Virus record (IMG/VR): IMGVR_UViG_2757320666_000001
Coordinates: 1-64,000 of that record
Reading direction: 5' to 3' (one strand)
Length of the DNA stretch: 64,000 nt
Source: a virus
Taxonomy: Duplodnaviria; Caudoviricetes
Of this stretch, positions 23,031-29,877 are shown piece after piece (within the stretch, counting starts at the first letter, position 1; each line of letters begins with the position of its first letter). Below the pieces are notes generated by a model. It was not told the origin of the DNA and did no database searches. It saw nothing but the letters and a program-made list of their open reading frames with translations. Both the position numbers and the translations under genes were made by a program.

Positions 23031-24002
23031 ATGCAAAAATTTCAGTTTGTAAAAATAGATTCAATACTTTCAAAATTTCAAAGAGATTTTAAAGGTATTG
23101 ATATTAATGAAGATGATGCTATTGAATGGATAGGAGAAGCATTAGGATTTATGAAAATAGTTAGTGCATCAGAAGAAGCAATTGCTTTTATTGAAGTAAA
23201 AAACTATCATGCTTCTATACCAGCAGGTCTTCACTATATAACTCAAATAGCAAGAAATAATGATTGGGAAAAACCAGAAGATACAAATGGTTGTGCAGCT
23301 AACACTATTGCTCAAATTGAAACAGAAACTAAATGTTGTGATGAACAACAACCTAAACATTTATCAAATGAACAACTTTCTGTTACATGGGATGAAGAAC
23401 AATCTCAATATGTAGTAGAACTAAATTTACCATTATCTTTTCAAAATTGGATAAGTTCAACATATAAAAAAGCTAAATACACTCCTGTAAGATTAGCTAA
23501 TCATTCTTTTTTAAATACATTAGTTTGTAAAGAAAAAGATATGGAAGATGTATATTGTAGAGATTGTAAAGACAGAGATGAATATACAATAGTACAAGAC
23601 CAATTAAGATTTAATTTTCAGACAGGTTTTATTGCATTAGCATATATAAGACAAATGATTGACAATGAAACTGGTTATCCAATGATACCTGATGATGAAT
23701 CAGCAAGAGCAGCTATTACATACTATCTTGGTTGGAAAATTAAAGAAATGGAAGCATGGAATCATAGAGAAGGTGCTATGCAATTAGCTCAAATAGCAGA
23801 ACAACATTGGTTAAAATATATCAAGCAATTTAAGAATAAAGCTAAAATGCCTACTGGTGTGGACCAATATCAAAATTTAATGGAACAATCAAATTACTTG
23901 ATTCCTAATCATAATAGATATTATGGTTTCTTTGGTAAATTAGGAACTGCTGAAAATAGAACATTTAATGGTCCAAGAAAAATAACAAACTATGCGAGAT
24001 AA
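23031..24002 (+). CDS. Tail tubular protein (P22 gp4-like / ring protein)
   Basis: IEWIGEAL, GYPMIPDD.S...AITYY and W..Y..Q motifs; directly upstream of the stabilization protein. Confidence 0.75.
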   Translation: MQKFQFVKIDSILSKFQRDFKGIDINEDDAIEWIGEALGFMKIVSASEEAIAFIEVKNYHASIPAGLHYITQIARNNDWEKPEDTNGCAANTIAQIETETKCCDEQQPKHLSNEQLSVTWDEEQSQYVVELNLPLSFQNWISSTYKKAKYTPVRLANHSFLNTLVCKEKDMEDVYCRDCKDRDEYTIVQDQLRFNFQTGFIALAYIRQMIDNETGYPMIPDDESARAAITYYLGWKIKEMEAWNHREGAMQLAQIAEQHWLKYIKQFKNKAKMPTGVDQYQNLMEQSNYLIPNHNRYYGFFGKLGTAENRTFNGPRKITNYAR

Positions 24003-27000
24003 TAATACAGTAATTCAACCTGGAGGATTAAGTACAGATACATCTTATGTAAATCAACCTCAAGGAGCAACTACATTTGTTTTAAATGGGGTAAATGAAA
24101 CAGTTGAAGGAGATAAAGGTTTCATTGCTAATGAAGAATCTAATGAACCATGTTATACTATACCTCAAGGTTTTACACCAATAGGTAAGGTTTATATTGG
24201 TAATGATGAAACTTTAATATTTCTTTGTTCTACTAATGGTGATTCAATGTTAGCAATAGTGGATAGAGAATGTAATTTTTCTATACAAGTAAGTGATGTA
24301 AATCAAACTGAAAAATTTGGATTTAAGATAAGTCAGCAAATAGATGCTACTTTTAGATTAAGAAAAGGATGTGAAAGAGTTATCTATTGGATTGACCCTA
24401 AACCAAGAATATTTATATTAGAAAAACCAGAAAAATTCCAAGATAATACAACAGGTGATTGGGATATTTCAAAATTTAATTTGTTTAAAATTTATAAAAC
24501 AATACCTAATTTTGATGATGTTGAAGTATTAAACAATGGAGGTAATTTATTATCAGGTAGTTATAATTTTTCTATTCAGTATTTAGATGAAGATTTGAAT
24601 CCTACAGAATTTATTACAAGTAGTGAAACAGTACAAGTATATAATAGTGATTTCACATTACCTTATAGAGATGTAAGAGGTTCAACTAATACTGTAACTG
24701 AATATCAAAATTTTGGTAGGTCAGATAAAGCTATAAAAATAACATTATCTAATTTAGATGAAACTTTTCCTTTTTATAGATTAGCTATCACAGAAGCTAC
24801 AGGAGGTACAGGACAGATTACTGATACAAAATTTACACAAGAAATATCTACTCAAAATACTGTATTTACATATACAGGAAATAATTATGAATCTTCTGGT
24901 ACTCAATCAGATGTATTAGTATTTAAAAATATTATAGAAAAAGCAGGAAGTATTGAGCAAGTAGAAAATACTTTATTACTTGGTAATGTAAAAGGTAAAG
25001 AAGTAAATCTTTGTAATTTACAGAAATATGCAAGTAAGATATGTGCTGATATGGTTACTAAAAAAGTTGCACTAAATCAACTTATTGATGGTAACAGTAA
25101 ACATACTTCTGTTAATTTAGAAGGTTTAGGTTACATGCCTGGAGAAATATATTCTTTTGGTATTGTATATATTTTTGATGATAATACTTTAACACCTGTT
25201 TATCATATTCCTGGTAAAAGTAATTTGATTCCAGCAGATACTATTTTTGATGCTGGTCAGAATATACATCCAATGGCACTTAACAATACAAGTGCTGATA
25301 ATTCATATACTGATAATGATAGTTGTGGAGGAGTAAATTATTGGGGAGTAGATTCAGAAGGTACTCAATTAACAGGACAATTAGTTAGACATCATAGATT
25401 TCCATTAAGAACAGATGTAAATATACCTTTGTTAGAAAGAGTAAATACAAACACAACAACAAATGTATTTAAGAGAATAAAAGTAAATATAGCAGGAAGC
25501 ATTCCTACACCTACAACTTGTCCATTAGTTGATGAACCAGGATATGACCCAGCTTGTGTTCCTGTTATTGCTAATACTTTTCAGTATAATCTTAATTATA
25601 CTATAGATGGTGGAACTAATTTATATGAGTTTATAGGACAAGTAAAACCTTCTGATTATGCAAGTAGTAGTGCTTCTCATATAATATCTGAAAATGATTA
25701 TTCTAATATTATAGTTGCTACATTAGTAAGTTTTAGTACACTTGATGAAAGTCAAGAAAATGGAGATATATTAAGAATTATAGGTACAATAGCTGGAGGA
25801 ATTTTTACAGCTATATCTACTAATGGAGATTTAATAGACCCAGTTACAAATTTACCTACTGGTACAATAAAACCTGGTAGAGGTTTAACTTATACAGTAG
25901 AATTATCTAATGATATAGTTGAAACAAAAGATGAGCAATTTACCTCTGATATTTTTGGTATCCACTTTTCTAATATAGAAATTCCTTCTGAATTAGAATT
26001 AAATGGTAATAAAATCATTGGTTACTATATTGTTAGAAATGAAAGAATTGAAGATGAAAAAACTATATTAGATAGTGCTGTATTAACTTCTACTGTGCAA
26101 AATGCACAATTTGTATCTTCTGGTTTATTGATGCCTGAAATGGACAATGATTCAAGAATTAAGAAAGATATAGTTAGTATAATAAATCCAGAGTTTAAAT
26201 TCAATGAAAAAAAATATAAGAATGTAACTAAAATAATTCAACAAGGTAGTTTTAAAAGAACAGAAGCTATACACAGTAGAACAAAAATTATTGATGTTCA
26301 AGATGGTAATTCATATCAAAGTGGTATGAAAGATGCTGAAAATGGTAGATTTCAAGGTAATGGTAATAATGGTCCTGATGGATTCTTATTACAAATAAAA
26401 TCAAGAGATAACATTACAACTTTTACAGATAAAAAAGATTTTGAAATTGATGCTTCTAAAATAAAAGAAATTTTCTTTTTACCAGCATTAGGAGATAAGT
26501 TAATTCAAGATTCTGCTGATGTTGGTGTAGATGTATTTAATCTTGCTTGTGATAATAAAGTAGGTATAATGTCATTAAATGAAAATATAAATTTTCCTAT
26601 TGTAAATGATGTACCTTATGTTTATTTAGTAAAAGATAATGCTAATCCTTATAATAATTTTAGATTAACTCCTTATTATAAAGAAACTTTAAATCCAATT
26701 TATTTTACATCAACAGAATCAAGTTGTGATGTATTCAATGGAGATAGTTATATTACACCAATAAGATATACAAACAGTATATTTTATGATAACAGGTTAA
26801 GAAAAAGAGCAGCTAAAACATCTGTTTGGAATTATATTGCAGCAGCACTTTTAGTAATTGTAGCTGTTGTAATTGCTATTTTTACTTGGGGAGCAGGTAC
26901 AGCAGGAAGTATAGCTTTAATTGGTGTAGCAGCAGCTATGGTAGGTGGTGCAGCAGCACTTGTGGCTTCTGGTATAAAACAAGATGCTTGGGCAAGAGCA

Positions 27001-29877
27001 TATAGTGATTTATATGATAAAGGTTTGAGAGAAACTATTGTAGATAATTACATTTTATATGATTCAGACCCTGGTAATGGAGAACAAAGAGGTTTTGCTA
27101 AAAATCCACCAGATGATGAAATTCAATGGTTAGGAGAATGTTTAAATCTTTGGTTTGAATCTAATGTAAATATGAATTTAAGACAAGGTGCTACTGATAA
27201 TACACCTGACTTTCTTAATGCACCAGGTAATAGAGAATTAGGAACATCTTATGGAGAATGGGATGAAGAATATTTTGGAATACATTCAGTTGGTTCAAGA
27301 GAAATTGCTCCTACAAATTCTTTAGATATTCACATGGTTAAAAAATTAACTTATTTGAATAGTGAAAGAAAAGGAGGAAGAGCTTATATAGGACTTGCCC
27401 TTGCTGAAATATATCAAATTAATCAAGATTATAAAAGAAGAAATAAAGAAAAAATATATAATCATTTACCTTTGGAATATGATTGCTGTTCAGATTGTAC
27501 TGAAACATTTCCTCATAGATTGCATTGGTCTCAACAAGCATTTCAAGAAGAATTGACTGATAATTTTAGAAACTTTTTACCTAATAATTATAAAGATATT
27601 GAAGGAGAAACAGGTGTAATAACTGACTTGTTTAGAATCCAAAACAATCTTTATATTCATACAGAAGAAGCTCTGTGGCATCAACCACAAAACTTCCAAG
27701 AAAGAGTAACAGATAATATTATTTCTTTTATTGGAACAGGAGAATATTTTAATATACCACCAAGAAAAATTGTTGATGATAATAATAGTTCTTCTGGTAA
27801 TACTCATAAGTGGGGTAGATTGAAAACAAAAAATGGAGTATTGTTTCCTTGTCATAAAGAGAAAAAATGGTACTTATTTAATGGACAATCTCTTCAACCA
27901 ATTTCTGATACATACAACTCTAATTATTTTAGAGAAAATATGAAATTTAGAATGGCTGAAAGTTATTATAATGCTAATCACATTAATTATCCATATAATA
28001 ATAATCCATCAAATCCAATAGGAGTTGGTTATATTTCAACTTATGATACAAAAAAAGAAAGATTGATTATAACTAAAAAAGATTTTGATATTGCTGGTTT
28101 ACCTGATGGAGATTATCAATTATGCAATGAAGGTTTAGGAACAGTAATATTTCCTAATTTATCACAAATTATTGCTAATAGATTAGCTAATGGTTGGCAT
28201 TATGTTGGTATAGAAAATTGTAAGTTAAAATTTGAAAAAGTAGTTCTTGAAACAAGAATAGAAATAAGAACAATAACTACGAATGTTCCTAATAATAGTA
28301 ATATAGTTATACAGTTTGATAGGTCAGGTAGTTTTGGTAATGCTGGAGTTGCTAATGTTAAAGTAGCTGTATTAGCTTGGTTTACACAATTTAAAATTGA
28401 TAATCCAACATTTACAGGAAGATTAATTTATGTTTTAGCTGTTGAAAGATGTAGTGGTCAAGCATGGTTAAGTGTATTAAGATGGTTACAAAACAGTCAG
28501 CAAGTATTTTTAGTAGATAATACAGCAAATCCTTTAATTGGAATAGAAACACCTATAACAAATTTTAATACTATAAGTAGAAATATAATTATAGTTTCTA
28601 CTGTAAATGAAGCAGCTATAAATAGTTGTGGGGGTACTGGAGAATATCATACAAGTGGTATCAGTAATCCTACAGATGCTCCTTCTACAGAATATATTAA
28701 TGATTTTAATGATTATAACACAAGATATGATGCATTGATTGCTGCTGGATATAGCATTCATGGATTACAATATCCTATTGTTTATACAAGTATTCCTGGT
28801 CCTACAAGAGGTATGTTACAACATAGTATATCTGCTATTACAGGTAGAACATTGAATGCAACAGAATTAGCTTTTTTAGCAGCTAATATTAACCCTTTTG
28901 TTCCAACAGGAGATTATGCTTTATTATTAACAGTATTAGCAGGAGTAAATCCATATCCATCAGGTTTAAGTCAAAGAAATTGGCAATATAAACATACAAG
29001 AGGTTGGGATGGTACTGGAGATATAATTAGTCCTTTACAATTTGCTACTGATATAAATGGTTTTCTTGGAAGTTTAACTACAACAACACAAGTTGAAGTA
29101 GAAGTACAAATACCAGTATTAACTTATGAATATGAAGAAGGTGTACCTTTAGAAACAAATCTATTAAATAATAGTTTTACAATGAGTTACTCATTGAAAG
29201 ATACTAAATGGATTTCTTGGCATTCATATTTACCAAGTTTCTATATGCATGTTCAAGAGAAGTTTTATTCTTGGAAAGAAGGTTTGAGTAATATATGGAG
29301 ACATGGTAGAAGAAATCACTATCAAAATTTTTATGGAGAAAGACATCCTTTTATAGTAGAATATGTTGATAATTCAAATGCATTAATTAGTAAAATATAT
29401 GATGCAATTAAATTTCAAACAGAAGCTAAAGAATATGATGTAAATACAGATAGTTATATTGATAAAAGATTTATTACATTTAATAAAGTTCTGGCTTATA
29501 ATACTCATCAAATAAGTGGTATTCTTGATATGCTGGTAAAAGATGTTGATTTAGAATATATGAACAATCAAGTAGAAAATTCAGCAGGATTTATAAATCT
29601 TGATAGAAATGAAAGAGATTGGTGTATTAATGATTTAAGAGATTTATCTGTAAATCCTAATGTATCAATATTCAATAAAAATTTAACAAGTTTACAAGCT
29701 GATTATTTTATAGATAAAATAGTTAATAGTAATAGGATTGACTATAATAAGGATTGGACTGAAATGGAAAGTTTTAGAGATAAATTCATGGTGGTTAGAT
29801 TCATATTTGATACCTTTGACACCACAAGATTAATTATGAACTTCTCTGTGCAAGATTCAAAAGTATCTGAAAGATAA
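23992..29877 (+). CDS. Tail stabilization / muzzle protein (P22 gp10-like) with inserted domains
   Basis: N-terminal GGLSTD, GSYNFSIQYLDEDLNPTEF, GYMPGEIYSFGIVYIF, WISWHSYLP motifs; 1961 aa. Confidence 0.8.
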   Translation: MRDNNTVIQPGGLSTDTSYVNQPQGATTFVLNGVNETVEGDKGFIANEESNEPCYTIPQGFTPIGKVYIGNDETLIFLCSTNGDSMLAIVDRECNFSIQVSDVNQTEKFGFKISQQIDATFRLRKGCERVIYWIDPKPRIFILEKPEKFQDNTTGDWDISKFNLFKIYKTIPNFDDVEVLNNGGNLLSGSYNFSIQYLDEDLNPTEFITSSETVQVYNSDFTLPYRDVRGSTNTVTEYQNFGRSDKAIKITLSNLDETFPFYRLAITEATGGTGQITDTKFTQEISTQNTVFTYTGNNYESSGTQSDVLVFKNIIEKAGSIEQVENTLLLGNVKGKEVNLCNLQKYASKICADMVTKKVALNQLIDGNSKHTSVNLEGLGYMPGEIYSFGIVYIFDDNTLTPVYHIPGKSNLIPADTIFDAGQNIHPMALNNTSADNSYTDNDSCGGVNYWGVDSEGTQLTGQLVRHHRFPLRTDVNIPLLERVNTNTTTNVFKRIKVNIAGSIPTPTTCPLVDEPGYDPACVPVIANTFQYNLNYTIDGGTNLYEFIGQVKPSDYASSSASHIISENDYSNIIVATLVSFSTLDESQENGDILRIIGTIAGGIFTAISTNGDLIDPVTNLPTGTIKPGRGLTYTVELSNDIVETKDEQFTSDIFGIHFSNIEIPSELELNGNKIIGYYIVRNERIEDEKTILDSAVLTSTVQNAQFVSSGLLMPEMDNDSRIKKDIVSIINPEFKFNEKKYKNVTKIIQQGSFKRTEAIHSRTKIIDVQDGNSYQSGMKDAENGRFQGNGNNGPDGFLLQIKSRDNITTFTDKKDFEIDASKIKEIFFLPALGDKLIQDSADVGVDVFNLACDNKVGIMSLNENINFPIVNDVPYVYLVKDNANPYNNFRLTPYYKETLNPIYFTSTESSCDVFNGDSYITPIRYTNSIFYDNRLRKRAAKTSVWNYIAAALLVIVAVVIAIFTWGAGTAGSIALIGVAAAMVGGAAALVASGIKQDAWARAYSDLYDKGLRETIVDNYILYDSDPGNGEQRGFAKNPPDDEIQWLGECLNLWFESNVNMNLRQGATDNTPDFLNAPGNRELGTSYGEWDEEYFGIHSVGSREIAPTNSLDIHMVKKLTYLNSERKGGRAYIGLALAEIYQINQDYKRRNKEKIYNHLPLEYDCCSDCTETFPHRLHWSQQAFQEELTDNFRNFLPNNYKDIEGETGVITDLFRIQNNLYIHTEEALWHQPQNFQERVTDNIISFIGTGEYFNIPPRKIVDDNNSSSGNTHKWGRLKTKNGVLFPCHKEKKWYLFNGQSLQPISDTYNSNYFRENMKFRMAESYYNANHINYPYNNNPSNPIGVGYISTYDTKKERLIITKKDFDIAGLPDGDYQLCNEGLGTVIFPNLSQIIANRLANGWHYVGIENCKLKFEKVVLETRIEIRTITTNVPNNSNIVIQFDRSGSFGNAGVANVKVAVLAWFTQFKIDNPTFTGRLIYVLAVERCSGQAWLSVLRWLQNSQQVFLVDNTANPLIGIETPITNFNTISRNIIIVSTVNEAAINSCGGTGEYHTSGISNPTDAPSTEYINDFNDYNTRYDALIAAGYSIHGLQYPIVYTSIPGPTRGMLQHSISAITGRTLNATELAFLAANINPFVPTGDYALLLTVLAGVNPYPSGLSQRNWQYKHTRGWDGTGDIISPLQFATDINGFLGSLTTTTQVEVEVQIPVLTYEYEEGVPLETNLLNNSFTMSYSLKDTKWISWHSYLPSFYMHVQEKFYSWKEGLSNIWRHGRRNHYQNFYGERHPFIVEYVDNSNALISKIYDAIKFQTEAKEYDVNTDSYIDKRFITFNKVLAYNTHQISGILDMLVKDVDLEYMNNQVENSAGFINLDRNERDWCINDLRDLSVNPNVSIFNKNLTSLQADYFIDKIVNSNRIDYNKDWTEMESFRDKFMVVRFIFDTFDTTRLIMNFSVQDSKVSER

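Follow-up and report, generated by a model that had tools for sequence, protein, structure and literature searches.

The DNA analysed here, referred to as the window, is a stretch of 64,000 nucleotides corresponding to positions 1 to 64,000 of the IMG/VR virus record IMGVR_UViG_2757320666_000001. The complete record measures 88.4 kb, with an estimated completeness of 98% and a guanine-plus-cytosine (G+C) content of about 28%. At positions 23992–29877 of the + strand, to which all coordinates within this gene refer, the list of open reading frames (ORFs) contains a gene (P0001) for a protein of 1961 amino acids (aa), which its domain profile matches identify as the muzzle of a crAss-like phage from the environment. 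Pfam detects crAss_MUZ (PF25731; E = 1.1e-36, 127 bits) and crAss_MUZ_C (PF25729; E = 9.5e-10, 39.2 bits) in this ORF, both scoring above the cut-off of 27 bits. The protein also matches phrog_15100, annotated as a virion structural protein, and in relatives the muzzle gene lies directly 3' of CrAss_Ring_1 and is followed by a gene for a protein of about 4200 aa. Within the C-terminal β-propeller of this muzzle protein, we find a long insertion in which a β-ribbon stalk carries a domain with a fold reminiscent of von Willebrand factor type A (vWA) domains. The nearest deposited relatives are the FPSV phages of Flavobacterium psychrophilum, which match at the DNA level in patches only; by megablast, they match only downstream of the insert.

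Searching the solved structures of the Protein Data Bank (PDB) by phmmer, either with the whole muzzle or with the insert, gave no match, and crAss001 gp44, in the same database, was likewise missed by a whole-muzzle profile. Since HMMER provided no link between the muzzle and gp44 in the PDB, the comparison was made by hhalign, using the gp44 sequence from GenBank MH675552 and a 12-sequence muzzle alignment (A1). Muzzle residues 1140–1367 align with gp44 residues 999–1202 (E = 9e-6), and residues 1731–1841 with gp44 residues 1202–1304 (E = 2e-4). Both flanks meet at gp44 residue ~1202, and residues 1368–1730 (28093–29181; 363 aa) therefore represent a single insertion that interrupts a hairpin turn in the C-terminal propeller. 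At this point gp44 reads ...VYFTYKDHCL/CYSELINQF..., a tight turn joining two strands. The gp44 protein of crAss001 (Bayfield et al. 2023, PMC10172136) is a homologous muzzle, both by Pfam and by hhalign on either side of the insertion, but it has only this tight turn where the present muzzle has 363 extra residues.

In gp44 (1371 aa), the chain beyond residue 1021, where the IG2 and crass domains end, completes a seven-bladed propeller, of which blade 4 forms the gate (PMC10172136). Judging by its position, gp44 residue 1202 would fall in a blade later than blade 4, probably blade 5 or 6. An earlier note on this DNA, made without database searches, had described the domain as built into the tail gate. 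This description is imprecise: the insertion lies in the propeller, at about gp44 residue 1202, while the gate loop belongs to blade 4 (PMC10172136). Length variation between muzzles has been ascribed to insertions that affect the crass and IG2 domains (PMC10172136), and the propeller insertion thus occupies a different site. The G+C contents of the insert (0.30) and of the rest of the muzzle gene (0.28) show no meaningful difference. The earlier note had also regarded the segment as distinct from the ordinary muzzle core and as new for crAss muzzles. In line with the former, gp44 lacks the whole segment and the FPSV phages carry a different module at this place. As for the latter, neither the presence of a vWA-like domain in crassvirus muzzles nor the propeller insertion site was reported in the literature that we searched.

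A conserved stalk with exchangeable cargos

We analysed the anatomy of the insertion in two AlphaFold models built from independent alignments. Model 1 is based on 7 sequences and has a predicted local distance difference test (pLDDT) score of 78.5; model 2 is based on 40 sequences, with a pLDDT of 91.9 and a predicted template modelling (pTM) score of 0.81. Block pLDDT values of model 2 are mostly 88–97, with 77 at the far end of the ribbon.

The insertion starts with a stalk base (28093–28221; aa 1368–1410), which is conserved in phage FPSV-S29 and contains a short β-hairpin, WHYVGIENC, with a strand at positions 9–14 of both models (model numbering). Next comes stalk strand 1 (28222–28281; aa 1411–1430, KLKFEKVVLETRIEIRTITT), an amphipathic strand modelled at 17–36 with block pLDDT values of 93–97. 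Stalk strand 2 (29080–29139; aa 1697–1716, TTTQVEVEVQIPVLTYEYEE) is likewise amphipathic and begins straight after the C-terminal helix of the cargo domain, the helix being modelled at 287–300 and the strand at 303–322. In both models, the two strands pair as a β-ribbon with 20 residues per strand, which would measure ~65 Å if extended and is preceded by the short hairpin (WHYVGI). That the segments flanking the domain could form a stalk had been suggested by the earlier note on the basis of VVLETRIEIRTITT and TTTTQVEVEVQIPVLTYEY; the models agree, with the correction that the strands, at ~20 residues each, are longer than those two segments. All the strings that it quoted, including IVIQFDRSGSF, VANVKVAVLAWF, RLIYVL and NIIIVSTVNE, are present in the translation of 23992–29874. 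Two cysteines of the stalk base, C1378 and C1410, are invariant in the 12-homologue alignment, and a disulfide between them may clamp the ribbon to the propeller.

Comparing the insertion with those of related muzzles reveals that the stalk behaves as a cassette. The muzzle of FPSV-S29 (1783 aa) aligns over residues 1–1433 and 1697–1961 of the present protein, the latter at 70% identity. At its residues 1421–1517, the FPSV-S29 muzzle (L011) holds an unrelated, Cys-rich and Gly/Thr-rich cargo of 97 aa, where 263 aa are found here. In a profile search of 1.84 billion representative proteins, the muzzles P0104, P0118, P0147 and P0157 matched the stalk columns only, as did the shorter P0144 (828 aa). 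P0118, P0147, P0157 and P0144 share another cargo of ~170–210 aa, located at residues 1440–1620, 1390–1572, 1482–1706 and 371–545, respectively. Its copies are 31–44% identical to each other, conform to the profile DYLVF.YNFS...DLDT...WGGDNTGYG...YKGGT and are unrelated to the vWA-like cargo. A Pfam scan of the cargo stretch in P0118, P0147, P0157 and P0104 returned no family. By these alignments, one conserved stalk bears at least three unrelated cargos. A further locus, L043:4001–4846, probably also encodes the DYLVF.YNFS cargo.

Fold and distribution of the cargo domain

The cargo domain of the present muzzle (28282–29079; aa 1431–1696, ~265 aa) adopts a vWA-like α/β fold and represents a family without a Pfam entry. 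Both AlphaFold models show the same alternating strand/helix topology, which the earlier note had read from the sequence over ~260 aa, and the domain forms a three-layer α/β structure with a mostly parallel central sheet that can be superposed on vWA domains. In the structural comparison, the 31 top-ranking matches were all vWA domains, and the best esterase scored 1.7 Z units lower. The vWA domains of Rpn10, TFIIH p44 and Sec23 are among the structural matches. Foldseek against the PDB also placed vWA proteins first, with weak statistics (best E = 2e-3); with the better model, Rossmann-type reductases were interspersed among the vWA proteins. Against BFVD, the only strong Foldseek matches were uncharacterised marine phage proteins (E = 1.6e-5 and 2.6e-4), and the first annotated class below these was 'von Willebrand factor type A'. 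Matches in BFVD comprise A0A7S9SUN3 of Virus NIOZ-UU157 (1189 aa), A0A516LFG0 and A0A516LFR9, with E-values of 1.6e-5 to 1.8e-3. At the level of predicted structures, the marine virus matches indicate a spread of the family through marine phages of the Bacteroidota type.

A stretch of the domain (28500–28830; aa ~1510–1610) also gave sub-significant profile matches to ADP-ribosyltransferases, namely Certhrax (E = 0.03) and the catalytic domain of diphtheria toxin (E = 0.7). These are probably chance matches, because the alignments were gapped and of low confidence and found no support in the fold searches.

The profile search retrieved 192 proteins at E ≤ 1e-3, 40 of them at E ≤ 1e-30. About half of the matches are muzzles with the full stalk-domain-stalk arrangement, while the remainder cover the domain columns only (~31–307) and have other architectures. 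These include carriers of 700–800 aa with bacterial cadherin-like or PKD domains; one cadherin-like carrier (P0063) is encoded in the fibre region of a crAss-like genome, with an auxiliary capsid protein on one side and a Phage_tail_C protein on the other. Tail-fibre carriers of 1300–2700 aa (P0097, P0077 and P0110) end in a C-terminal Peptidase_S74 chaperone. A carrier of 2431 aa adjoins a phage tail lysozyme, in a phage-tail region within a Bacteroidales metagenome-assembled genome; this locus was the sole match of a single narrow pattern run against the genomes of 185,579 bacterial and archaeal species, one each. The window contains one copy of the domain. By tblastn, the insert had no match in any of 50,697 deposited phage genomes, and PHROGs covers the domain only inside whole 'virion structural protein' families.

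In a FastTree phylogeny of 99 domain sequences, several switches between muzzles and other carriers are apparent. We counted nine, of which six are forced by well-supported branches; nine is an upper bound, as P0056 and P0129, labelled 'other', proved to be muzzles. Judged by phylogeny and protein architecture, the cargo belongs to a domain family that is autonomous, borne by phages and shared by muzzles and tail fibres. The earlier note had considered the domain to be separate from the fibres, a statement to be qualified, since tail-fibre proteins of other phages contain the same domain.

The conserved polar site

The sequence DRSGS (28318–28332; D1443, S1445 and S1447) follows a hydrophobic strand, exactly where the earlier note had located it, and resembles the DxSxS motif of the metal-ion-dependent adhesion site (MIDAS). 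In both models it lies in the β1-α1 loop, between the strand at 43–47 and a 20-residue helix at 55–76. The muzzle of 1961 aa contains a single D.S.S, compared with 0.58 expected from its composition. The motif alone is therefore not evidence; its conservation and its structural context are. D1443, S1445 and S1447 are invariant in the 12 homologues, even though their identity in this region is as low as 25%. Across the larger family, the strict DxSxS is found in 33 of 48 copies in a muzzle context, with Ser/Thr variants in four more, versus 5 of 51 copies elsewhere.

The signature that is common to the whole family is D...[ND]E...YH. D1443 is conserved in 96 of the 99 domains, the [ND]E pair at 1539–1540 in 90, D1571 in 85 and the YH pair at 1552–1553 in 76; W1463, G1476, F1537, Y1594-P1595, N1653, Y1655 and W1664 are also conserved. 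In the model, strand 1 leads into D1443, S1445 and S1447, and strand 2 into Q/E1490. N1539-E1540 (28606–28611) comes right after strand β4 (IIIVSTVNE; model strand 137–142), the fourth core strand, the place at which I domains carry the MIDAS Asp, making this pair the candidate counterpart of that residue. Y1552-H1553 (28645–28650) lies in the next loop, after β4, and Y1594-P1595 after the next strand. Two cysteines inside the cargo domain and near the conserved polar face, C1487 and C1545, are kept in close relatives. Domains of the vWA type bind metal and ligand at the C-terminal ends of their parallel strands.

Several results weigh against a straightforward assignment of the domain to vWA and of its polar site to the MIDAS. 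No sequence model calls the cargo domain vWA. Pfam VWA families were found neither in the insert nor, at E ≤ 1, in the 52 non-muzzle carriers, and PF13519 matched nothing in a six-frame translation of the phage genome, while 12 of 14 control genomes were matched. A scan of the cargo domain against NCBIfam also returned nothing. By hhalign, the 99-domain alignment and an alignment of 56 BatA/BatB-type vWA proteins from Bacteroidales genomes shared 24 columns, consisting of the first strand and the DxSxS, at E = 0.024 and a probability of 2%. In the PDB profile search, the integrin I-domain matches were sub-significant (E = 0.09–0.5). The vWA-type matches (integrin alpha-M, integrin alpha-E and PTMP1) span only the strand, the MIDAS and the helix, with DxSxS placed on DxSxS; the alignment of DRSGS with DGSGS of the integrin alpha-M I domain, at E = 0.09, is not significant. 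In the copies outside muzzles, the loop is one residue shorter or longer (DTTSM, DTTSGPY), and a conserved counterpart of the MIDAS Thr was not identified in the domain alignment. Because the strict DxSxS is missing from most of the non-muzzle copies, the site as conserved across the family (D, [ND]E, YH) is, by alignment, not a canonical MIDAS. Furthermore, that the conserved polar residues share one face, at the C-terminal strand ends, is something we infer from secondary-structure positions only.

The proposal of a vWA domain in the earlier note thus stands for the fold and for the placement of DxSxS in the β1-α1 loop, but not at the level of sequence profiles. As far as the alignments tell, the muzzle subfamily has a good MIDAS-like loop and the whole family keeps a somewhat different polar site. 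A working MIDAS is plausible, though in our estimate somewhat less likely than not.

Putative function and comparison with known systems

The explanation that we favour, and to which we give an even chance of being correct, is that residues 1431–1696 form an exchangeable vWA-like module for binding to the host surface, possibly mediated by a metal. A role at the host surface is favoured because the module is exchangeable and projects outwards from a conserved stalk at the tail tip, and because the domain is also found in tail fibres. The module would be held ~65 Å away from a C-terminal propeller blade by the two-stranded amphipathic β-ribbon, and the hexameric tail tip would display six copies of it. 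Most likely, it would bind a component of the host (Flavobacteriia-type) cell surface, using a face composed of D1443, S1445, S1447, Q/E1490, N1539-E1540, Y1552-H1553 and Y1594 at the C-terminal strand ends. In the muzzle subfamily, the favoured mode of binding would be a divalent cation at the DxSGS[FM] loop that bridges to an acidic ligand. A bound cation is preferred here because the face of this subfamily presents the DxSGS[FM] loop typical of a MIDAS.

The main rival explanation, which we consider unlikely, is an enzymatic role, for instance as an esterase, a deacetylase or another hydrolase acting on capsule or lipopolysaccharide (LPS), in which the conserved Asp, Ser, Glu and His would make up a catalytic site resembling that of SGNH-type esterases in tail fibres. 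Such an activity would fit the conserved Asp/Glu/His set and the occurrence of the domain in fibres, but in the structural comparison described above the best esterase ranks below all 31 vWA domains. The sequence blocks of SGNH/GDSL tail-fibre esterases are not present either. Block I (GDS) is not reproduced, as the residue next to D1443, at position 1444, varies (R, T, S, M, I, V and others), and block V (DxxH) lacks a counterpart, as there is no conserved His in the C-terminal half and the sole conserved one, H1553, lies 13 residues past the [ND]E pair. Moreover, many members of the family have a gap, Thr, Pro or Met in place of S1445 and S1447, the candidate nucleophiles, and hhalign against an alignment of nine SGNH proteins, again from Bacteroidales genomes, produced no alignment of note.

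Still less likely, in our view, is a structural or assembly role without a host ligand, in which the module might buttress adjacent muzzle subunits or serve to dock other parts of the tail or cargo, and the DxSxS would be a relic of the fold. Many vWA domains do mediate protein-protein assembly, among them those of Rpn10, TFIIH p44 and Sec23. The amphipathic stalk strands suggest packing on another surface, and half of the family has a degenerate DxSxS. However, the finding that a conserved stalk carries three or more unrelated cargos, together with the lack of any insertion in crAss001, fits better with a variable, outward function, and the domain recurs in fibre proteins of unrelated architecture. 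That the DxSxS arose by chance in ordinary muzzle core, as its near-expected count in the protein might suggest, is highly improbable, given that the segment has no counterpart in gp44, forms a separate fold, has 192 relatives including non-muzzle proteins and keeps the motif invariant in the 12 homologues.

The host-surface binding module could conceivably do more than adhere. By analogy with integrin I domains, it might act as a receptor sensor, as the earlier note had also proposed, that is wired to the tail gate and serves as a plug-in trigger, a scenario that we regard as improbable, more so than an assembly role. As in integrin I domains, the C-terminal helix (model 287–300) would move once a ligand is bound to the MIDAS-like face, and the pull would run down the 65-Å ribbon to a propeller blade near the blade-4 gate loop, helping to trigger muzzle opening and ejection. 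The swappable cargo on the conserved stalk would then set host specificity at the irreversible step. Transmission of a signal to the propeller is conceivable because the C-terminal helix leads directly into stalk strand 2.

These findings bear on two questions about crAss-like phages, namely host recognition and the opening of the muzzle. The structure of crAss001 suggests only that the distal crass domain touches the cell (PMC10172136). In related environmental phages, we find a conserved propeller stalk that accommodates at least three unrelated cargos, and if the module described here does bind the host, the muzzle itself would be a modular host-range determinant. This would provide an experimental handle on adsorption and on the triggering of ejection in crAss-like phages that infect Flavobacteriia. 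The cargo domain defines a previously undescribed, phage-restricted vWA-like family that is common to muzzles and tail fibres, offers a small set of residues to mutate and could enter domain databases.

Elsewhere in the muzzle, in the crass-domain region, residues ~945–995 (26824–26976) form a 50-residue, uncharged, Ala/Gly/Val-rich double hydrophobic segment that is kept in the 12 homologues. It weakly matches SseC translocators (Pfam; E = 0.0065 here and 2.6e-4 in the homologue P0147), and a comparison with the hydrophobic hairpin of MakA/Nhe pore-forming toxins gave E = 0.5. This segment may be a hairpin by which the muzzle inserts into a membrane.

When comparing the cargo domain with vWA and integrin I domains, such as those of integrin alpha-M, vWF A1 and ITIH1, there are several differences. 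Whereas these domains measure ~190 aa, the muzzle domain has 265, i.e. ~75–100 additional residues, and its second strand is followed by a helix rather than a tight hairpin. It differs further in having no Pfam or profile relationship to them and no identified MIDAS Thr, in the Tyr-His pair that its family adds and in a DxSxS that is not conserved family-wide. The general arrangement is reminiscent of the Gram-positive pilus tip adhesins GBS104, RrgA and SpaC and of the minor pilin PilB of Streptococcus sanguinis, where a vWA module has been inserted into a stalk domain. However, organism and assembly are different, isopeptide and pilin features are absent here, and the scaffold is the propeller of a phage tail nozzle instead of a CnaB/Ig domain or a pilin. 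Belonging to a family absent from Pfam and NCBIfam, the insertion, as read from its alignments, pairs a divergent vWA-like module, found here in a new location, with a cassette site that had not been recognised before.

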